From: Myxococcota bacterium
Lineage (GTDB): Bacteria > Myxococcota_A > UBA9160 > SZUA-336
Direction of reading: 5' to 3'
NCBI GenBank assembly: GCA_035498015.1
Contig: DATKAO010000018.1
Location: 1,835 to 65,834 of the forward strand
Length of the DNA: 64,000 bases
Under the pieces are notes generated by a model. That model was given only the letters and a program-made list of their open reading frames with translations. It had not been told where the DNA came from and did no database searches. Below are positions 2,726-12,922 of this stretch, piece after piece. Made by a program: the position numbers and the translations under genes. Each line of letters opens with the position of its first letter. Position 1 is the stretch's first letter.

Positions 2726-4765
2726 ATGGCCGCGCGGCTGCGCCTGCGCTTCCGCACCAAGATCTGGATCGCCCTGTGCGGCCTGGTCGGCGTGGCGCTG
2801 GCCGTCGCGCTCGCGGTCGCCCAGGACGCAGCGCTGGAGCGCGTGCGCAGCGAGTCACGCGCGCGCTTCGACCGCACGCTCACCGCGTTCCACGAGCTGC
2901 AGCGGCTGCGCGCGCAGTACGCCTCGGCCGAGATCGACGCGCTCTCGCGCGCGAACCCGCAGCTGCGCACGATCCTGTCCACGGCCTCGCTGGCCGCGGC
3001 CGACCTGGGCTTCGGCGGCGCCGCGCCCGAGGACGCGCTGCACGACGCCAACCTGCGCCTGCAGTCGGCGCTGCCCTCGCTCGCCGCCAAGGAGAAGCTC
3101 GTGGTGTTCGCGCTGACCGACGCGCACGGGCGCCTGCTCTACAGCCGCGCCGACCCGGAGCGCTTCGGCCAGGACCTGCTCGCGCTCGGCCGCGTGAAGA
3201 GCGTGGCCGACGGCGCGCGCGCCACCTGGATCTGGCTCGACGGCGACGCCGTGGTCGGCGACGCGCGGCTGGCGCCCGCGTATCCGTCGCCGGCGCTGTA
3301 TCTCGTGCGCGGCGAGCCGGTGGTCTTCGACGACGAGGTGCACGGCATCGTGCTGCTGGGCGAGCCGCTCGACCGCGAGCTGCTCGAGTCACTGCGCGGG
3401 ATCACCGGCGTCGACCTGGCCCTGGTCTCGCGCGGACGGGTGATCGCGACCACGCTCTCGGCCGCGCACGAGGGCGCGCTGCCGGTCGCGCTCGAGCGCA
3501 TGGAGCGCGCCCGCGACCCGGGCCGCGGCATGGCCGAGCTGCAGCTCGACGACGAGCGCTTCCTGGCGCTGCGCTCGGAGCTCGACCCGGGCACGCCCCA
3601 GGCCGACGCCGGCTTCGTGCTCCTGACTTCGCTCTCGGGCGAGCTCGCCGCGTTCCGCGAGCTGCGCACGACACTCTCCGGTGTCGGCCTGCTCGTGCTC
3701 GCCGGCGCGCTCGGCGTCGGCTACGCGCTGGCGCGCGGCATCACCAACCCGCTCTCCGACCTGGGGCGCGCGGCGCGCCGCGTGGGCCGAGGCGACCTGG
3801 ACGCGCGCGTCTCGATCGCGACCGGCGACGAGCTCGAATCACTCGGCGACGCCTTCAACGAGATGGCCGCGGGCCTGCGCGAGCGCGAGCTGATCAAGAG
3901 CACGCTCGAGCGCTACGTGAGCAAGAAGGTCGCGGCCGAGCTGCTGCGCGACCCGGGCCGCGTGACTCTGGCCGGCGCGCGCCGCGAGCTGACGGTGATG
4001 TTCGTCGACCTCGGCGGCTTCACGGCGCTGGCCGAGGAGCTCCCGCCCGAAGTCGTGGTCGCCCACCTGAACGAGTATTTCGAGGCGGTGTGCGGCGCCG
4101 TGCTCGAGGAGGACGGCACGGTCAAGGAGTTCCAGGGCGACGGCGTGGTGGCGTTCTGGGGCGCGCCCATCCCGCAGCCCGACCACGCGCCCCGCGCGTG
4201 CCGCGCCGCGCTCGCCGCCGCGGCGCGCCTCGACGCGCTGCGCGGCCGCTGGGAGCGGCGCGGAGTGATTGCCCCGAGCTACCGCCTGGGCTTGCACAGC
4301 GCGGAGCTGGTGGCGGGCGAGATCGGCTCGGCCGAGCGCGGCGCGTACGGGATCGTGGGCGACGGCATGAACCTCGCCGCGCGCATCGAGGGCGCGAACA
4401 AGCTCTACGGCACGCGCTTGCTCGTCTCCGAAGCCACGCGCGAGCGGCTCGGTGCCGGGTTCCTGCTGCGCGAGCTCGACCGCGTGCGCGTGGTCGGCCG
4501 CCGCCAGCCCGTGCGGCTGTTCGAGCTGATCGCGCAGGACTCCGCCGCCACCCCGCAGGCGCGGCGCGCGTGTGCGCTCTACGAGCGCGCGCTCGCCGCG
4601 TACCGCGCGCGCGCGTTCGGAGAGTCACTGCGCGCGCTCGACGAGCTCCTGGCAGCGGCGCCGGACGACGCCCCGGCGCGGTTCCTGCGCGCGCGCGTCA
4701 GCGAGCTCGAGTCGAGCCCGCCGCCGGCCGACTGGGACGCCGTGCTCGCGCTCGAGACCAAGTGA
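2726..4765 (+). CDS. membrane adenylate/guanylate cyclase with periplasmic sensor region, HAMP domain and C-terminal TPR-like tail
   Basis: N-terminal TM helix, about 280-aa extracytoplasmic region, second TM, HAMP (LSDLGRAARRVGRGDLDARV). Class III cyclase motifs LTVMFVDLGGFTALAEEL, FQGDGVVAFWGAP, GIVGDGMNLAARIEG. Confidence 0.85.
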   Translation: MAARLRLRFRTKIWIALCGLVGVALAVALAVAQDAALERVRSESRARFDRTLTAFHELQRLRAQYASAEIDALSRANPQLRTILSTASLAAADLGFGGAAPEDALHDANLRLQSALPSLAAKEKLVVFALTDAHGRLLYSRADPERFGQDLLALGRVKSVADGARATWIWLDGDAVVGDARLAPAYPSPALYLVRGEPVVFDDEVHGIVLLGEPLDRELLESLRGITGVDLALVSRGRVIATTLSAAHEGALPVALERMERARDPGRGMAELQLDDERFLALRSELDPGTPQADAGFVLLTSLSGELAAFRELRTTLSGVGLLVLAGALGVGYALARGITNPLSDLGRAARRVGRGDLDARVSIATGDELESLGDAFNEMAAGLRERELIKSTLERYVSKKVAAELLRDPGRVTLAGARRELTVMFVDLGGFTALAEELPPEVVVAHLNEYFEAVCGAVLEEDGTVKEFQGDGVVAFWGAPIPQPDHAPRACRAALAAAARLDALRGRWERRGVIAPSYRLGLHSAELVAGEIGSAERGAYGIVGDGMNLAARIEGANKLYGTRLLVSEATRERLGAGFLLRELDRVRVVGRRQPVRLFELIAQDSAATPQARRACALYERALAAYRARAFGESLRALDELLAAAPDDAPARFLRARVSELESSPPPADWDAVLALETK

Positions 4766-5534
4766 GTCCCAGCGCCGCCAGCGCCAGCAGTCCGGCCGCG
4801 CCGGGCTCCGGCACGATCGCGAAGGCGTCGACGTCGCTCGCGTAGGCGTCACCGGCGTCCTGGAACACGCGCACGTACTGGATCCAGGGCAGGCCGAGCG
4901 CGGCCAGGTCGACGCCCACACCGCCGCCGCCGCCCGCGTAGAGCGCCGCGATCTCGGCCGTCGTCTTGCCCGCGAAGTCGCCGAGCCCGAGCGCCGGGTC
5001 GACGGGCTGGGTGTAGCGGGTCGGGATCGAGCCGTCGGAGCCGAAGGGGTCGGTCACGTCCTGGTACGCCAGCGTCGGGAACATGCCGTCGGCAGTCACT
5101 GTCGCGGTGTACCAGGTCACGCCGTCCTGACTCACCGCGATGCGCGCCGGCTCGGCGAACACCGTGCCGTCGGCGAGACCGGTGTTGAAGTCGATGCCCA
5201 GGAAGGCGTTTCCGTACACCAGGAGGTCGATGCCGTACGGGTTGGCGCCGTCGTCGGCGACGGGGTGGTCGAAGCGCACCGTGAGCTGTCCGCCGGCGCC
5301 GATCGAGACCACGTCGCTCGACTGGTACGGCGCGTTGAACGGCGTGAGCGACCCGTCGAACGGGCCCGTGCCGGTGGCGCGCCCCGGCGAGCCGAGCGCC
5401 ACGTTCGGGTCCGTGTAGCCCGCGCTGACGTTCGAGCCGGGCGTGTAACTCACGACCTCGCTGGCAAAGGAGGACGCGAGCACACGCGTGGCCAGGGACG
5501 AAAAGACGACGGCGGTGAGCGCGATGGCTCTCAT
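4698..5534 (-). CDS. PEP-CTERM sorting-signal secreted protein
   Basis: N-terminal signal peptide. C-terminus IVPEPGAAGLLALAALGLTWSRARARR has the PEP motif, a hydrophobic helix and an Arg-rich tail. GGAGG-type RBS before the ATG at 5534. The 3' end overlaps the cyclase 3' end by 68 nt. Confidence 0.7.
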   Translation of the reverse strand: MRAIALTAVVFSSLATRVLASSFASEVVSYTPGSNVSAGYTDPNVALGSPGRATGTGPFDGSLTPFNAPYQSSDVVSIGAGGQLTVRFDHPVADDGANPYGIDLLVYGNAFLGIDFNTGLADGTVFAEPARIAVSQDGVTWYTATVTADGMFPTLAYQDVTDPFGSDGSIPTRYTQPVDPALGLGDFAGKTTAEIAALYAGGGGGVGVDLAALGLPWIQYVRVFQDAGDAYASDVDAFAIVPEPGAAGLLALAALGLTWSRARARRPSRPAAGSTRAR

Positions 5535-5839
5535 GCAAGAACTCCTCGACTCGCTTTCGGAGTCGCATTTCGGACGTTCATTCCACGCGCCAGGCCGGTC
5601 TTCTGGCTCCCGGATCGTCCTCCCGCCGAGCCTTCCCGGAGCCGCGAGGCGGCTCCAGTGGCATGATTCGGCGTTCGTCCCCGGTCACAGCGACGGGCTC
5701 GCGCCGGACTCTCACCGGCTTCCCGACACCTGACGCGACTCTTGTTGTTGGTCTTCTACCTCGCACCGCCGTCGGAGTCAAACCGCAGTCCTGTCGAGCG
5801 CGCGGCCACCCTGCCCACGCGCTCGGTTGACGCTGCAGG

Positions 5840-6020
5840 TTGCGGGGTGATACAGGTCGCGGTGAGCTCGGTTAAGGGAAGGCCGTGAGAATCGGCCGCG
5901 GTCCCGCCACTGTGATGGGGTTCCCCACGTCGGGGAAGTCAGTCCGAGACATGCCACTGGGAGCGCCGCTCCCGGGAAGGCTCGGAACGGCGAAGTAACC
6001 CTGAGCCAGGAGACCTGCCG
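5840..6020 (+). promoter_or_regulatory. cobalamin (AdoCbl) riboswitch
   Basis: Conserved elements GGTGATAC, GGTTAAGGGAAG, GTGAGAATC, CGGTCCCGCCACTGTGATGGGG, GCCACTGGGAG, CCGGGAAGG and the B12 box CCCTGAGCCAGGAGACCTGCC lie 40 nt upstream of a TonB-dependent receptor gene. GAGGAGGGAG RBS directly downstream. Confidence 0.85.
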
Positions 6021-6061
6021 AGCGCTCGGGACGAAGTCCCGCTCTCCGAGGAGGGAGTCAC

Positions 6062-8110
6062 TTGGCGTCGTCTCGACTCACTTGCGCGGCCCTGGCGTGC
6101 GTACTGGCTGCACGCAGCGTGCTCGCGGGCGAGCTGCACGAGTCGGCGGACGACCCGTCGGCGTTCTCGACCGTGATCGACGCCACGAAGTACGACGATC
6201 GCTTCGCCACCGTCGAGGAATTGCTCGACCAGGTGCCCGGCGCGAAGGTGACTCGCAGCGGGGGAATCGGCTCGCGCAGCACGCTCGGGCTGCGCGGCTC
6301 CAAGCCCGAGCAGGTGCTGGTGCTGCTCGACGGCGTCCGGCTCAATTCACCCGAGCGCGGCGCGGCGGACCTGTCGACCATCCCCGTGCGCCAGGTCCAA
6401 GAGATCGAAGTGATTCGCGGCGGCGGCGCCGCGCGCTTCGGCAGCGACGCCGTCGGCGGCGTGGTGCTGATCACCACGCGCAAGGCCGCGAGCGACGGCC
6501 CGCACGCCGACGCGTCGCTCACGGCCGGCAGCACCACGCTGCGCGGCGGCGACATCACGCTCTCGGGCGCGGGCGACCGCGGCAGCGCGCTCCTGAGTTA
6601 CTCGCGGCTCTCGGCCCGGAACGACTATCTCTTCGACCTGCCGTCGCGCGATCCGGGCCGGACCTTCACGTTCCGCCGGCTGAACGCCGACTCCAGCGAG
6701 GACTCCGGGCTGCTGCGCGGCAGCCTGCTCCTGGGTCAGTTCACCAGCCTCGATGCGTCCGTCGATCTCTACCGGCGCGACGGCGGCCAGCCGGGCAGCG
6801 TGTACGGCAAGCCGCGCGAGAACGCGACCAGCGAGGACATCTCGTGCACGACCAGCGACGAGAGCTACCAGCGCGGCCTGGCCCGGCTCGCGCTCGTGAG
6901 TCAGCGTTTCCTCGGCGGCGCCTTCGAGCTCGCGGGCTCGGTGCGCAGCGACGACGACGACCTCGAGGACCCCGGCGGCGCCTGCGGCTTCGTGAGCCCG
7001 CTGAACACGGGCGGCCGCGACAGCGCGTCGTGGCGCGAGCGCGAGTCGGCGCTCGAGACCAGTTGGTCCGCCGAGCGAGTCACTTGGGACTGGGTCGAGC
7101 TCTCCGGGCGTGCGGTGGCCGGCCTGCGCTACACCACGGTCGACTCTTCCGACGCGGACCTGCACCGGCGCACGCTCGGCTCGGTGTCACTCCTGCCGGA
7201 GCTCGCGTTCTTCGGGCGCACGCTGCGCATCCTGCCCGGCTTCGGCGTCGAGCTGGCGAGCTCGAGCTCGGGGCTGGCGCGCTCGTCGGTGTCGCAGTCG
7301 TTCGTCGAGACACAGCCGCACGATCCGACCGCGTGGCTGCCGGCCGTGGGCGCGATCCTGGAAGTCGCGCCCGGCTTCCGCTTCAAAGCCAACTGGAAGC
7401 GCGTGCTGCGCCGGCCCACGTTCACGGAGCTCTACCACCCCGACTGGACCTTCATCCGCGGCAACCCCGAGCTCGAGCCCGAGCGCGGCTGGAACGCCGA
7501 CGTGGGCTTCGAGCTGGCGTCGGACGGCGCGGGCTGGGTGCGCGACCTGGGGCTGCAGGTGAGTCTCTTCCAGCGCGAGCTCGACCAGGGCATCGAGTGG
7601 CTGTTGAGCCGGGGCAACAGCTACATGCCGCTCAACACCGGCCCGCAGCGCGCGCTCGGCGGCGAGCTGTCGTTCCAGTCCACCTGGCTGCGCGTGCTCG
7701 AGCTCGGCGGCTCCTACACCTACACCGACGCGCGCTATCTCGACCGGTCACAGGCGGGCGTGGCTTTCGACAGCGGCATCCGGCCCGTGGTGCCTCACGT
7801 GCCCATGAACTCGGTCTCGGCCAACGCCGCGCTCGAGCTGGGCGTGCTGCGGCCATGGGCGCAGCTGCACTACGACAGCGACTTCGCCTACCGCGTGGGA
7901 CAGGTGCCGCTGGCGCCGGCGACCTTCGTGGTGAACGCCGGCGTGGTGCTGCGGCCGAACCGCATTCCGCGGCTCCAGTTCCTGCCCGACACGCTCGCGC
8001 TGTCGCTCGAGGCGAGCAATCTCGGTCACGAGCAGCGCTACGACTCGTTCGGCCAGCCGCTCTCGCGACAGACGCTCTGGGTGGTGCGTATCCGCGGGGC
8101 CGCGCCGTGA
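6062..8110 (+). CDS. btuB: TonB-dependent outer-membrane receptor, BtuB-like (vitamin B12 transporter)
   Basis: TTG start after a strong RBS. Signal peptide, then plug-domain motifs (VTRSGGIGSRSTLGLRGSKPEQVLVLLDGVRLN, EIEVIRGGGAARFGSDAVGGVVLITT). Directly preceded by a cobalamin riboswitch. Confidence 0.8.
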   Translation: MASSRLTCAALACVLAARSVLAGELHESADDPSAFSTVIDATKYDDRFATVEELLDQVPGAKVTRSGGIGSRSTLGLRGSKPEQVLVLLDGVRLNSPERGAADLSTIPVRQVQEIEVIRGGGAARFGSDAVGGVVLITTRKAASDGPHADASLTAGSTTLRGGDITLSGAGDRGSALLSYSRLSARNDYLFDLPSRDPGRTFTFRRLNADSSEDSGLLRGSLLLGQFTSLDASVDLYRRDGGQPGSVYGKPRENATSEDISCTTSDESYQRGLARLALVSQRFLGGAFELAGSVRSDDDDLEDPGGACGFVSPLNTGGRDSASWRERESALETSWSAERVTWDWVELSGRAVAGLRYTTVDSSDADLHRRTLGSVSLLPELAFFGRTLRILPGFGVELASSSSGLARSSVSQSFVETQPHDPTAWLPAVGAILEVAPGFRFKANWKRVLRRPTFTELYHPDWTFIRGNPELEPERGWNADVGFELASDGAGWVRDLGLQVSLFQRELDQGIEWLLSRGNSYMPLNTGPQRALGGELSFQSTWLRVLELGGSYTYTDARYLDRSQAGVAFDSGIRPVVPHVPMNSVSANAALELGVLRPWAQLHYDSDFAYRVGQVPLAPATFVVNAGVVLRPNRIPRLQFLPDTLALSLEASNLGHEQRYDSFGQPLSRQTLWVVRIRGAAP

Positions 8111-9864
8111 TTGCCGCGCTGCTCGCGGTCACGCTCACGGTCGGCTCGGGCGACACGCTGCTGTTCGGCACCACCTCGGCGCCCGGGCTCGAAGTGAGTC
8201 CGGCGGACCCCAACCGGGCGTTCATCGCCGACTCGGAGACCGACCCGGGCATCTACCCGCTGCGAACGGCGACCGGCCAGTCGCTGGCGCTCGTGACTCC
8301 GTCGTACGGGCTCGCGGGCAACCTGAACTGCAGCGAGTCGTCGCCCTTCAACACCCCGCGCCTCGGGGGCTTCTGGCTCGAGCCCACGGGGCCCACCCGC
8401 GGCTGGATCCACACCTCGGCCTGCGAGCTGGCCGTGCCGTTCAACTACGCGACCGGCGCGGGAGTCACGATCAGCTACTCCGGCCAGACCCGCACGGCGG
8501 TGCCCACGCGGCAGACGCTCACGGGCGCGTTCACGCGCTACCAGAACGGCGGCGGCGGCGCGGCGATCACGAGCTTCAAGACCAACTTCACCTCCGGCGT
8601 GGTGCGAGTCGGGAACCGGCTGGTCGTGGCCAGCTCGAACCTGCAGCAGACCGGCTCGAACCCGGTCTACAACCCGGGCACGGTGCTGTTCTTCACGCTC
8701 GACGACTCCGGCTCCACGCCGGCGATCGCGCCGGCCAGCCCGTTCTTCGCCATCACCTCGGACCCGAACCCGATCGCGCTCAGCGTGCTGCCGGGCGGGC
8801 GCGTGGCCGTCACGAACGCGGGCATCTTCGACGCCTCGTTCCCGCCGCTGGTCACGGGTCAGGGCTCGATCGACATCATCGATCCGCAGAGCGGGTCACT
8901 CGTGGGCTCGATCCCGCTGGGCGCCGCCAACCCTTCGAGCGCGCTCGCGCTCGACCCGACCGGCTCGGTGGGAGTCACCGGCTCCGCCACGTTCCGGCGC
9001 CTGTACGCCGTCGACCTGCGCGGCGTGGACGCGCTGCCGGCGGCGCCCGTCGACCCGCGCGTGCAGCGGCCCTCGTGCAACGACGGCAGCGGTCCGAGCG
9101 CCGGCGGCGTGCCGTGCCTGCGCTCGCGCGTGGTGCGCGGCGGCGCGAGCCCGATCGTGCTGTCGCCGCCGCCCGGCTCGGGCGGCGTGTACTCCTACGT
9201 GCCCGTGACCCGCTTCGCGCCCTCGGGTGACTTCGCGGCGGCGACCTCCTACAACGACGGCGGGCTCGCGCTGGCGGCGTTCGACCCGCGCAACCTCGCG
9301 CGCTCTCACCCGCTGCTCGCCTCGCGCTTCGGCCCGCCCGAGACACTCGCCGCGACCGGTGCGGCCGGAGTGATCGGCCAGGAGTGCTGCCCCGGCCCGC
9401 TGCTCCTGCGCGCGACCGGCGGCGCCGGACTCACGACCACCGACGCGCTGTTCGCGACCGCCAGCCCGAGCGGCTTCGTGGTGCGCGGCCACCTGGGCGG
9501 CAGCCTCGCGCCCGCGGGCGGCGACGCCGACGGCGACGGCGTGGAGGACGCGCTCGACGTGTGCCCGCTCGCCGCCGATCCGGGTCAGGCCGACTCGGGC
9601 GGCGTGGGCAGTGCGGCGCCGCCCGACGGCGTCGGCAACGCGTGTCAGTGCGGCGACGTCTCCGACGACGGCCACGTCGACGTGGCCGACGTGATGGCGC
9701 TGCGCGACTTCCTGTCGCGGCCGTCCGTTCCGCTGCCCGCGCCGCAGAAGTGCGACGTGGGCTCGCTCGCCGGCGGGGCCTGCGACGTGCTCGACGCGGC
9801 GCTGTTGCGGCGGGCGCTCGCCGGGCTCGCGCCGGGGATCGGGTTCGGCTGCGAGCTCCAGTAG
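8107..9864 (+). CDS. secreted beta-rich (propeller-like) protein with C-terminal dockerin/thrombospondin-type Ca-binding repeats; co-transcribed with btuB
   Basis: GTG start overlaps the btuB stop (GTGA). It is the coding tail of the long ORF 6082..9864, whose first 2 kb is a frame-shadow of btuB. Hydrophobic N-terminus, repeated Gly/Ser/Thr-rich beta-strand segments, C-terminal DADGDGVEDALDVCP and CQCGDVSDDGHVDVADVMALRDFL. Confidence 0.55.
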   Translation: MIAALLAVTLTVGSGDTLLFGTTSAPGLEVSPADPNRAFIADSETDPGIYPLRTATGQSLALVTPSYGLAGNLNCSESSPFNTPRLGGFWLEPTGPTRGWIHTSACELAVPFNYATGAGVTISYSGQTRTAVPTRQTLTGAFTRYQNGGGGAAITSFKTNFTSGVVRVGNRLVVASSNLQQTGSNPVYNPGTVLFFTLDDSGSTPAIAPASPFFAITSDPNPIALSVLPGGRVAVTNAGIFDASFPPLVTGQGSIDIIDPQSGSLVGSIPLGAANPSSALALDPTGSVGVTGSATFRRLYAVDLRGVDALPAAPVDPRVQRPSCNDGSGPSAGGVPCLRSRVVRGGASPIVLSPPPGSGGVYSYVPVTRFAPSGDFAAATSYNDGGLALAAFDPRNLARSHPLLASRFGPPETLAATGAAGVIGQECCPGPLLLRATGGAGLTTTDALFATASPSGFVVRGHLGGSLAPAGGDADGDGVEDALDVCPLAADPGQADSGGVGSAAPPDGVGNACQCGDVSDDGHVDVADVMALRDFLSRPSVPLPAPQKCDVGSLAGGACDVLDAALLRRALAGLAPGIGFGCELQ

Positions 9865-9875
9865 ACTGCGCGGCC

Positions 9876-10607
9876 ATGGGCCGCGTGCGCCAGATCGCGG
9901 GCGTTCTGGAGATCGAGCGCGCGCTGCGCGCGGCCGAGGACGTGCGCCTCCTGCTCGTCGCCGACGACGCGCGCGCCGAGGACGTGCGCCGGCTGATCGC
10001 CAGCGCCGAGGAGCGCGGCGTGGCGGTCCGCACGATCACCCGCAACGTGATCGCGAGACTCTCCGTGGTCCGGCCCGCCGAGGACGCGCTCGCGCTCGTG
10101 GGCCGTGACCCGGCGGCGAGCCTCGACGAGTCACTCGCGCGCGGCGGCGCCTTCTGGCTGCTGGTCGGGGTGGCGTACCCCGGCAACGTGGGCATGGTGG
10201 TGCGCACCGCCGAGGTCTCGGGCGCCGACGGCATCGCGGTCGATGCCGGCTTCGACCATGAGGCCAAGCGCGCCGCGCTGCGCGCCTCGATGCGCGCCGA
10301 CAAGTTCATGCCCGTGTTCTGGGCCCGCGCGCAGGAGGTGCTCGACGCGGCCCGGGCGCACGGCCACCGCGTGCTCGCCGTCGACGAGGCGGGCGAGGCG
10401 AGTCATTTCGCCACCGACCTGACCGGGCCGCGCGTGTTCGTGGTGGGCGGCGAGAACGGGGGCGTTCCGCCCGAGGTGCTGGCGCGCTGCGACGCGCGCG
10501 TGCGCGTGCCCATGGCGGGCTTCATCCCTTGTTACAATCTCCAGGCTGCCGTCTCGGCCGTCGCGGTCGAGAGACTGCGGCAGCTGCTCGCGGCCGGCCA
10601 GGAGTGA
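9876..10607 (+). CDS. SpoU/TrmH-family RNA 2'-O-methyltransferase
   Basis: ATG at 9876 in-frame within ORF 9384..10607. Motifs WLLVGVAYPGNVGMVVRTAEVSGADGI and VFVVGGENGGVPPEVL, and a C-terminal SPOUT knot region. Confidence 0.75.
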   Translation: MGRVRQIAGVLEIERALRAAEDVRLLLVADDARAEDVRRLIASAEERGVAVRTITRNVIARLSVVRPAEDALALVGRDPAASLDESLARGGAFWLLVGVAYPGNVGMVVRTAEVSGADGIAVDAGFDHEAKRAALRASMRADKFMPVFWARAQEVLDAARAHGHRVLAVDEAGEASHFATDLTGPRVFVVGGENGGVPPEVLARCDARVRVPMAGFIPCYNLQAAVSAVAVERLRQLLAAGQE

Positions 10608-10681
10608 GCCACTCCTTAGACTCGACTCACGACGAGTGCGAGCGGAGCCGGCGGGAGAGCGACCTGCTACCCAAGCGCTTC

Positions 10682-12922
10682 ATGCAGCAACGCGGGGACG
10701 CACGGCTGGAAGGGCCGCCGATCGCGCGGGTGCTCGCGGCCGTCGCCGCGGGGGCGCTCGTCGACTTCGCGCTCTTCGCCTGGCTGGCGCGGCGCGGGGT
10801 GCTGCTGGCCGGCGCGAACCTGGCCGCCGGTGGCGCGGGCGCGGCGCTCGCGCTCCCGCTGTGCTTCCGGGGGCTCTACGGCCGGCGCGCGCTGCGCTTC
10901 GGGGCAGTGAGTCTCCTGGCGATCTTCCTGCGCGGCGGCGCGCTCGCCAGCCTGGCGCGCAATACGGCTCTCGGGCCGCTCGCGGCGTTCGCGCTCGCGC
11001 AGGCCGCCGGGCTCGCGATCCTGGCCGCGACCGTGCGCGGCTTCGTGCTCGCCCCCGAGCTCCGTCCCGAAACGCGCGAGCGCGCGCTGCAGCTCGCGTG
11101 TCTGGGCGTGGCCGCCTACCTGCTGGCCCTGCGCATCGCGTACGCGGGCGCGCTCGAGCTCCTGCCCGAGGAGGCCTACTACTGGAGCTACGCCCAGCAC
11201 CTGGACCTGTCGTATCTGGACCATCCGCCGCTCGTCGCCTGGCTGATCTCCGCGGGCACCAAGCTCGTCGGTCACAGTGAGTGGAGCGTGCGGCTGGGCG
11301 CGATCGCGTGCTCGGTGATCACCGCAACCTGCTGCGGCGCGCTGACCGTGCGCTGGTTCGGACGCACCGCGGGCGCGGCGGCGGTCGCGCTGCTCTCGGC
11401 CACTCCGTTCGGCTTCGCGAGCGGCGTGCTCATGACTCCCGATGCGCCGCTGGCGGCGGCCTGGGCCGGTGCGCTGCTGGCGCTGTGGTACGCGCTGGTC
11501 GAGCTGCGCCCGCGCGCCTGGCCGTGGGTCGGCGCGTGTCTGGGCGTGGGCCTGCTCGCGAAGTACACGATCGCGCTGCTCGGCGTGGGCGCGCTCCTGT
11601 TCCTGCTGGCCGACCGCCGCGCGCGCGGCGAGCTGCGCCGGCCCGGTCCGTATCTCGCGGGCCTGGTCGCGCTCGCGCTGTTCTCGCCCGTGCTGATCTG
11701 GAACTACCAGAACGACTGGGCGTCGTTCCTGTTCCAGACCCGGCGCAGGCTCGACGACCCGGCGGCCTTCGGCCTGCACCGGCTGATCGGCAGCGTGCTC
11801 GTGTTGCTCGGCCCGGGCGCGCTCGCCGCGCTGTTCGCGCTGCGCCGCAGTCAGGTCCGGCGCGCGCTCGACCCCGAGCCGTCGGGCAGCGAGCGCAAGC
11901 GCCACTGGCGCTTCGCGGCGCTGGCCGTGTTCGCGCCGCTGGTCGTGTTCGTGCTGTTCTCGCTTGCGCACCAGCCCAAGGTGAACTGGACCGGGCCGCT
12001 CTGGCTCGCGCTGCTGCCCGCGGCCGCCGCGCTGCTCGTGCGCGCCGGGCTGGCGCGCGACGATCGCGCGGGCCGGCTGGCCGCCTCGCTCACCGCGCCG
12101 AGTCTCTGGCTCGCGCTGCTCGGCTACGGCTTCGGGTTGCACTCACTCGCGCTCGGTGTGCCCGGCAGCGAGTTCCCCAACGGCACGCGCTGGGCGCAGC
12201 ACTGGCGCGCGATCGCCGCATCGGTCGACGGCTTCGCGCAGAGAGTGCGCGCCGAGACGGGCCAGTCACCCGTGATCGTGACCTTCGACCGCTACGCCAC
12301 CTCGAGCCTGATCGGCTTCTACCAGCCCCAGGGCGGACCGCGCTGGCGCCTGGGCGGCCGATCGCTGTTCGGCGCGGGCGAGAGCCTGATGTACGGCTAC
12401 TGGACGCCGCCCGACTCGGTCGCAGGAGAGACGCTCCTGTGCGTGTCCGACGACCTCGGGGACATGCAGCTGCCGATCCGCTTCGGACACGCGGGCGAGA
12501 TCGGCAGCATTCCCGTCGCCGGCGACGACCCGCTGTTCGTGCGCGCGCTGTACGGCTACGAGCCGGGCGCGCTCTCGGGCACGAAGCGGAAGAACGCGGC
12601 GGCCTCGAGCACCGCGGACTCTGCCGCCTCGAGCTCGCACATGCTGCCCAGCTCGCGGATGCCTTCGGTGGCGCGCTGGTCGAGCCCGAGCTCCTCGGGC
12701 TTGGCGGCCTTGGCCTTGCCGAGTGACTCGACGATCTTCGGCGCCCACTCCGGCCGCGGCTCGCCCTTGGTGTCGAACACCACCGCGCTCCAGTCCGGCC
12801 CGTCCTTGAACACGCAGATCACGCCCGCGCCGCGCAGCTCGGCCGAGGGCACCGTGAACATGGCCGCGCGGCCGCGCACGCCGTCCTCGAGCTCGAGCAG
12901 GAGACCCTCGACCAGCGGGTGA
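10682..12922 (+). CDS. GT39-family (ArnT/PMT-like) membrane glycosyltransferase with a GtrA-like N-terminal segment
   Basis: ATG at 10682. EEAYYWSYAQHLDLSYLDHPPLVAWLI motif and more than 10 TM helices. No stop until 12922; the last ~120 aa are Ser-rich low complexity that overlaps rapA on the opposite strand. Confidence 0.7.
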   Translation: MQQRGDARLEGPPIARVLAAVAAGALVDFALFAWLARRGVLLAGANLAAGGAGAALALPLCFRGLYGRRALRFGAVSLLAIFLRGGALASLARNTALGPLAAFALAQAAGLAILAATVRGFVLAPELRPETRERALQLACLGVAAYLLALRIAYAGALELLPEEAYYWSYAQHLDLSYLDHPPLVAWLISAGTKLVGHSEWSVRLGAIACSVITATCCGALTVRWFGRTAGAAAVALLSATPFGFASGVLMTPDAPLAAAWAGALLALWYALVELRPRAWPWVGACLGVGLLAKYTIALLGVGALLFLLADRRARGELRRPGPYLAGLVALALFSPVLIWNYQNDWASFLFQTRRRLDDPAAFGLHRLIGSVLVLLGPGALAALFALRRSQVRRALDPEPSGSERKRHWRFAALAVFAPLVVFVLFSLAHQPKVNWTGPLWLALLPAAAALLVRAGLARDDRAGRLAASLTAPSLWLALLGYGFGLHSLALGVPGSEFPNGTRWAQHWRAIAASVDGFAQRVRAETGQSPVIVTFDRYATSSLIGFYQPQGGPRWRLGGRSLFGAGESLMYGYWTPPDSVAGETLLCVSDDLGDMQLPIRFGHAGEIGSIPVAGDDPLFVRALYGYEPGALSGTKRKNAAASSTADSAASSSHMLPSSRMPSVARWSSPSSSGLAALALPSDSTIFGAHSGRGSPLVSNTTALQSGPSLNTQITPAPRSSAEGTVNMAARPRTPSSSSSRRPSTSG

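Follow-up and report, generated by a model that had tools for sequence, protein, structure and literature searches.

Can bacteria outside the Bacteroidota equip a TonB-dependent receptor with a surface protein that captures vitamin B12 on its behalf? To our knowledge, protein-assisted B12 capture at such a receptor has so far been documented only in gut Bacteroidota, in which it decides competitive fitness. The question is raised here by a locus within a 64,000-nucleotide (nt) stretch of DNA from a Myxococcota bacterium (contig DATKAO010000018.1; the whole stretch is called the window, and positions follow its numbering). In this locus, a cobalamin riboswitch is followed by the gene for a receptor resembling the cobalamin transporter BtuB, and then by a gene for a 585-residue protein. 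An initial annotation, made from the sequence alone, described the latter as a possible B12-capturing accessory, and "possible" is indeed the right strength for that claim. For the locus as a whole, we consider it fairly probable that it encodes a three-protein corrinoid-scavenging unit with two divergent riboswitches, in which the 585-residue protein, mostly a beta-propeller, would be the surface capture partner of BtuB.

Conserved gene order behind two cobalamin riboswitches

Evidence for this reading comes from the arrangement itself, followed through 18 loci with readable upstream sequence (the window plus L001, L002, L004, L005, L008-L015, L018-L021 and L023). An aptamer of the Rfam cobalamin family RF00174, a TonB-dependent receptor gene and a propeller gene succeed one another in all 18, with the receptor stop and propeller start overlapping or abutting, at 45-100% identity. 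Recurrence of the pair behind B12 riboswitches in related genomes had been named as a check, and in these 18 loci the pair does recur. In 17 of the 18 loci, the window included, a second, divergent riboswitch precedes a beta-sandwich gene. In the exception, L002, the operon continues past the propeller gene with two genes, one for a DUF4465 protein that terminates in PEP-CTERM and one for a weakly related 284-residue protein. Binding of B12 has been demonstrated experimentally for eight divergent DUF4465 members, and genes of this family often lie near those for TonB-dependent receptors and propellers (PMC13398666). Two further loci, L006 and L007, were left out of the counts, being fragmented by apparent frameshifts that are probably sequencing or assembly errors; this fragmentation yielded the spurious short "homologues" P0085-P0087.

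A covariance-model scan across the whole window returned only two Rfam matches above threshold, both RF00174 aptamers, which lie back to back and divergently inside a single 527-nt intergenic region. The plus-strand copy at 5852-6036, upstream of the receptor-propeller operon, scores 87.1 bits (E 4.1e-20) against a gathering score of 31.5 bits, in keeping with its first description as a textbook cobalamin riboswitch. The minus-strand copy at 5576-5748, upstream of a gene for a 278-residue protein, spans the full model (1-189) at 103.8 bits (E 6.8e-25); it had been overlooked by the initial annotation, which knew of a single riboswitch. The B12 box GCCAGGAGACCTGCC is found at 6006-6020, 41 nt ahead of the TTG start of the receptor gene at 6062, and the position of box and leader is the same in all 18 loci.

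Between aptamer and start codon lies the plus-strand expression platform (6028-6061). It consists of a small hairpin, GGGAC-GAA-GTCCC (6028-6040), followed by GCTCTCCGAGGAGGGAGT (6041-6058), which includes a strong Shine-Dalgarno (SD) sequence, GGAGGGAG (6050-6057), with the receptor start 5 nt past it. A CUCUC element within GCTCTCCGAGGAGGGAGT would be able to pair with the SD sequence. This leader is nearly invariant, the hairpin being followed by GCTCTCCGNGGAGGGAGT in 16 of the 18 loci, and the segment shows no variation from which covariation could be read. No intrinsic terminator was found in the leaders by a terminator scan, a promoter scan found none, and nothing could be learned from minimum free energy folding of the two leaders (z-scores -0.95 and -1.85). 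Judging from these sequence elements, sequestration of the SD sequence is the likely mechanism of translational control.

The receptor gene (6062-8110, plus strand) encodes 682 residues, and its TGA stop (8108-8110) overlaps the GTG at 8107 that opens the gene for the 585-residue protein (8107-9864). The 4-nt GTGA overlap is thus real, and it implies that translation of the receptor and the propeller is coupled. The GC content at codon position 3 is 0.93 (0.934) in the receptor frame, whereas in the frame of a 1260-residue open reading frame (ORF) running through the same DNA it is 0.52 across the receptor part and 0.96 from 8107 onward. Because of this jump at 8107, the long ORF can be said to hide a second gene, as had been supposed. 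A frameshift fusion of the propeller to the receptor was also considered and was ruled out on topology, because the C-terminus of the receptor faces the periplasm.

A propeller outside the known families

The 585-residue product has 87 homologues at 39-100% identity, most of them unnamed. All the informatively named ones come from metagenome-assembled genomes (MAGs) of uncultured Myxococcota or "Deltaproteobacteria", one fragment is labelled Solirubrobacteraceae, and the homologue P0061 carries the NCBI name "YncE family protein." Residues 1-465 (8107-9501) match no Pfam or NCBIfam family, and no Pfam match to the propeller was obtained for 11 core members either. A profile search against PDB sequences with E up to 10 gave matches to the tail of the protein only and none to the propeller, and literature searches found no description of the propeller family. 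The first impression of a protein lacking any obvious family signature is therefore accurate for this part.

Its fold is better defined. An AlphaFold2 model built from a 45-sequence alignment (pLDDT 89.5, pTM 0.82) is all-beta to about residue 465, and Foldseek aligns it to seven-bladed propellers of the PDB with E values of 1e-9 to 1e-7 and target-normalised TM-scores of at most 0.73. These matches include the muconate lactonizing enzyme 1jof, E. coli YncE (3vgz) and WD40 proteins. The model allows residues 1-465 to be confidently assigned to the seven-bladed type of beta-propeller, the blade number being taken from the Foldseek matches and not from coordinates; the "propeller-like repeats" noticed at the outset turn out to belong to a predicted propeller. 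Its invariant polar residues are D16, R297, D303, R305, Q320, R321 and S323. Among its cysteines, Cys324 and Cys337 are invariant, while Cys75 and Cys106 are both present in 38 sequences and both absent in seven.

Whether the protein is secreted, as had been claimed, is less clear-cut. The paired and covarying cysteines fit an oxidising compartment, and together with the calcium-binding tail they argue for an extracytoplasmic location. The N-terminal signal, on the other hand, is unusually short: the window copy has a short hydrophobic N-terminus (MIAALLAVTLTVGSGD), with 15 residues ahead of the invariant Asp16. In the subclade of the window (8107-8151 in the window itself), 15-19 residues precede Asp16 and no basic n-region is present, whereas other members have signal peptides of 21-40 residues. 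Neither in the window nor in L001 is there an ATG, GTG or TTG within 40 in-frame codons upstream of the propeller start. Translation from a CTG at 8077 would produce a canonical signal peptide, but this codon is probably incidental, a consequence of the Leu-Trp codons of the receptor. We regard MIAALLAVTLTVGSG as a candidate minimal signal peptide of the window subclade. As MIAALLAVTLTVGSGD contains no Cys, the window copy has no lipobox.

What, then, does this propeller resemble? BtuG of Bacteroides thetaiotaomicron, a surface lipoprotein that forms the lid of BtuB (PMC6143338, PMC10404256), is likewise a seven-bladed propeller encoded beside btuB under a cobalamin riboswitch. The window protein differs from BtuG in having no lipobox and a C-terminal tail of thrombospondin type 3 (TSP3) and dockerin-like repeats, and in belonging to Myxococcota and not to Bacteroidota. 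Its propeller is also larger (about 450 residues) and carries conserved disulfides, and the two proteins have no Pfam family in common. A second comparison is provided by E. coli YncE (3vgz; E 8e-9, target-normalised TM-score 0.69), one of the best structural matches, which is encoded beside the TonB-dependent transporter YncD/PqqU; it has no sequence similarity to the propeller in PDB searches. The yncE gene is divergently transcribed and iron- rather than B12-regulated, and its product has no dockerin tail. The propeller appears best read as an analogue of BtuG in function: the two agree in fold class and in gene context but not in detectable homology or in lipid anchor, and membership in the BtuG family is unsupported. 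Of the likening to BtuG made at first, the analogy is thus retained (a propeller, its place with btuB, beta-sandwich fusions in relatives), while homology was not detected.

Sister propellers, the receptor and a beta-sandwich partner

When a profile of the propeller alone was searched against 1.84 billion representatives (E up to 0.001), 201 representative proteins were retrieved. Beyond the core, the search reached a sister family whose members are about 430-800 residues long and share 30-34% identity over 200-270 residues; all are "hypothetical", and their propeller had no Pfam match in the 20 tested. In a sample of seven gene contexts, the sister propeller stands directly behind a TonB-dependent receptor in six, and a cobalamin riboswitch is present in all four contexts with intact upstream sequence. 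Beside the sister propeller, L087 encodes a 556-residue DUF4465 protein, and L089 and L090 encode sets made up of a BtuF-type binding protein, FecCD, an ABC ATPase and TonB. In L088, the propeller gene is succeeded by one for a MopE-like copper-binding protein (10082-11284), and the end of the contig holds a fragment of a group II intron (11988-12141). According to a simple rule, 73 of 99 full-length sister representatives are lipoprotein-like, their sequences opening with a signal peptide followed by a Cys and a tether rich in Gly/Ser. Most relatives thus resemble lipoproteins, like BtuG, and some carry a fused second beta-sandwich, like BtuG1. Taken together with the 18 loci, these contexts strongly support the assignment of the propeller to the B12 regulon, and to that extent the role in corrinoid acquisition first deduced from the riboswitch is upheld.

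The receptor itself carries the Pfam domains Plug (PF07715, 74.7 bits) and TonB_dep_Rec_b-barrel (PF00593, 96.5 bits). Its top NCBIfam model is TIGR01779 TonB-B12, at 143.8 bits against an equivalog cut-off of 599.7, followed by a second BtuB model, NF007926, at 95.9 bits against 836. Despite falling short of both cut-offs, the BtuB models outscore all other NCBIfam models, and the closest PDB entry by sequence is E. coli BtuB (7.6e-23), matched in the plug region only. The designation "BtuB-like" is therefore sound, and from the riboswitch control and the neighbouring genes we infer that the receptor is a cobalamin transporter. It could be objected that the receptor-propeller pair imports something other than a corrinoid, such as a cobalt chelate or another metallophore, and that the riboswitch merely ties its expression to B12 status. 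Cobalamin riboswitches also control cobalt transporters, the receptor scores lie far under the BtuB cut-offs, the PDB sequence match is confined to the plug, and the propeller of L088 has a copper-binding neighbour. We nevertheless hold this to be quite improbable, given that BtuB is the best-scoring receptor model in both NCBIfam and the PDB, that DUF4465, a B12-binding family, is present in L002 and L087, and that L089 and L090 carry BtuF-type ABC import genes.

The same contexts bear on another alternative, according to which the propeller is part of the B12 regulon without being a capture lid, and instead acts on corrinoids as a processing enzyme or chaperone (for instance in remodelling, or in release from carrier proteins), or else shuttles them through the periplasm from the receptor to an inner-membrane transporter. 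The top Foldseek matches do include enzymes of this fold (1jof and the lactonase-like 1ri6), the propeller has many invariant polar residues, and no btuFCD genes lie near the window locus. Pfam searches with core and sister members detected no catalytic motif or enzyme family for the propeller, however, and the operons of L089 and L090 encode a BtuF-type protein besides the propeller, which is thus not a substitute for BtuF. Moreover, the dockerin and TSP3 tails, like the lipoprotein N-termini and long Gly/Ser tethers of the relatives, point to the cell surface. An enzymatic or periplasmic role is in our view unlikely.

The third component of the capture unit would be the 278-residue protein encoded at 4698-5534 on the minus strand, which has 146 homologues and is composed of a signal peptide, a beta-sandwich of about 210 residues and a PEP-CTERM end. 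A VPEP motif, a transmembrane helix and an Arg-rich end, IVPEPGAAGLLALAALGLTWSRARARR, can be read at its C-terminus; the PEP-CTERM model of Pfam gives 16.4 bits against a cut-off of 20.7 for the window copy, and 24 of 39 family members match it (best E 3.8e-6). AlphaFold2 predicts a confident beta-sandwich (pLDDT 89.0). Its sole Foldseek match in the PDB below 1e-3 is 8blw_B (3.6e-6), for which Foldseek gives no matched region, followed by discoidin and CBM32 sandwiches at about 1e-2. Chain B of 8BLW is B. thetaiotaomicron BtuG1, in which a propeller is joined to the B12-binding domain BtuH (PMC10404256). Apart from the tails, neither DUF4465 nor any other Pfam domain was found in 39 members of the 278-residue family, and no PDB sequence match was obtained.

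This protein is also tied to the propeller by gene fusions. In at least nine long sister propellers (P0235, P0269, P0354, P0320, P0291, P0316, P0307, P0280 and P0287; E 5e-12 to 2e-6), the last 150-200 residues are matched by a profile of the 278-residue family; in L086 the profile matches an ORF of its own, located downstream of the propeller. Two genes that have their own riboswitches in the window are thus fused elsewhere, which is a classic sign of shared function, and the fused members repeat the propeller and beta-sandwich architecture of BtuG1 (BtuGH). In Bacteroides, BtuH, BtuJ (DUF4465) and BtuK are surface-anchored beta-sandwich or propeller proteins of B12 loci (PMC8941943, PMC13398666, PMC13616437). 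The 278-residue protein is comparable to them as a predicted surface-anchored beta-sandwich under its own riboswitch, and DUF4465 itself occurs in L002 and L087; it differs in being anchored by PEP-CTERM instead of a lipid, and in its lack of a Pfam or PDB sequence match to its sandwich.

Several points weigh against a capture unit of this kind. With a 15-residue N-terminus and no upstream start, export of the window copy is not secure. The propeller has no sequence similarity to BtuG, to BtuK or to any Pfam or PDB propeller, and no BtuG chain is found among its best 50 Foldseek matches, so the resemblance is one of fold class and gene context only. One of the seven sister contexts, L085, has a propeller that does not adjoin a receptor. 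As for the 278-residue model, no stand-alone BtuH structure is among the top 50 matches listed, and as the matched part of BtuG1 is not given, that match is a lead and not a result. On balance, the alternatives fit the gene contexts less well than a corrinoid-capture unit does.

A broader proposal may be ventured, to which we give slightly less than even chances. In Myxococcota and in other MAGs labelled "Deltaproteobacteria", the whole propeller superfamily, uncharacterised and without a Pfam family, would provide BtuB-type receptors with caps or capture arms outside the cell, whether of independent origin from Bacteroides BtuG or diverged from it beyond recognition. Its anchors would be modular, mostly lipid, with TSP3-dockerin in the clade of the window, and its partner beta-sandwich would be either a separate PEP-CTERM protein or fused. 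According to a published view, capped TonB-dependent transporters seem exclusive to Bacteroidota (PMC10404256); if the proposal is true, accessory-capped vitamin uptake through such transporters is not exclusive to that phylum, contrary to this suggestion. Judging by the locus and its relatives, Myxococcota of soil and sediment may follow this strategy too, relying on other anchors and on parts that are either unrelated to those of Bacteroidota or diverged past recognition. The locus and its relatives would also yield two new candidate families of corrinoid-binding proteins, a naturally occurring case of surface anchors that can be exchanged (lipid, PEP-CTERM and dockerin), and a riboswitch-defined regulon from which hundreds of "hypothetical proteins" could be annotated, and could provide new B12-binding scaffolds.

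The calcium-binding tail and the flanking genes

How would a propeller with no lipobox be kept at the surface? Its tail (residues 466-585 plus stop, 9502-9864) comprises a TSP3 repeat (473-494), a dockerin-like repeat pair (516-571) and six conserved cysteines. The window copy stays just under the Pfam cut-offs (TSP_3, 23.1 bits against 25; Dockerin_1, 18.0 against 22.9). Searched with the family profile, the TSP3 repeats of COMP give 1.4e-7 and dockerins a weak match. Several paralogous tails exceed the cut-offs, reaching 47.8 bits for Dockerin_1 and 32.4 for TSP_3. With type I dockerins and thrombospondin type 3 repeats the tail shares, respectively, a duplicated EF-hand-like repeat and an Asp-rich calcium-binding motif, and it differs from both in being a fixed composite with six conserved cysteines. 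We know of no cellulosome in the Gram-negative lineage of the window.

This module of about 110 residues is by no means confined to the propeller. A scan of species-representative genomes found many copies per genome in related MAGs and in some others, for instance Binatia. The 70 copies returned by tblastn are 39-60% identical to the window copy (mostly 45-60%) and almost always terminal, with 3-24 residues remaining after the module. The N-terminal parts that carry it are mutually unrelated, and include VWA, glucose/sorbosone dehydrogenase (GSDH), DUF11 and laminin-G domains. Many paralogous copies (loci L024-L084) finish in C-A-P-A-x-P, and at least 20 of these loci belong to one MAG. The dockerin/thrombospondin tail of the initial annotation is accordingly real, whereas from its distribution it is to be read as a generic C-terminal module of the lineage, not specific to B12. 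Most simply, the tail would be a calcium-dependent device for surface retention or sorting, and it may represent a sorting or anchoring signal not described before. Four of the 39 aligned members of the 278-residue family (P0200, P0202, P0203 and P0207) carry a dockerin repeat pair in place of the PEP-CTERM end, which suggests that the two anchors are functionally interchangeable.

With these parts, a working scheme can be put forward. When B12 is low, both riboswitches would permit translation; when it is high, the ligand-bound aptamer would let the conserved CUCUC mask the SD sequence. From the plus-strand transcript would be made the BtuB-type receptor and then, through GTGA coupling, a disulfide-bonded, secreted seven-bladed propeller. 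Having no lipid anchor, the propeller would be retained at the surface by its calcium-binding TSP3 and dockerin module, where, like the BtuG lid of Bacteroides, it would bind corrinoids outside the cell and deliver them to the receptor. The minus-strand transcript would give the PEP-CTERM-anchored beta-sandwich, which would probably act as a further binder or relay of corrinoids in the manner of BtuH or BtuJ.

The wide distribution of the tail, common to dozens of unrelated secreted proteins per genome, might also be taken to mean that the 585-residue protein is a generic surface or matrix protein merely cotranscribed with btuB and has no part in B12 uptake; the gene downstream, for a SpoU methyltransferase, has no obvious link to B12 either. 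This we judge highly improbable, for the adjacency of propeller and receptor persists down to about 30% identity, across changes of anchor, neighbour and fusion, and the 4-nt gene overlap implies coupled translation.

The methyltransferase in question, of the SpoU/TrmH type, is encoded at 9876-10607, beginning 12 nt past the propeller stop, and may be cotranscribed with the propeller gene. It adjoins the propeller locus in many relatives (for example L001 and L004, and on the opposite strand in L087). On the other side of the locus, the 278-residue gene and a convergent ORF of 679 residues (2726-4765) share 68 nt at their 3' ends (4698-4765); the ORF is read as a HAMP/adenylate-cyclase type protein from its own translation and from a Guanylate_cyc match on the syntenic gene of L001.

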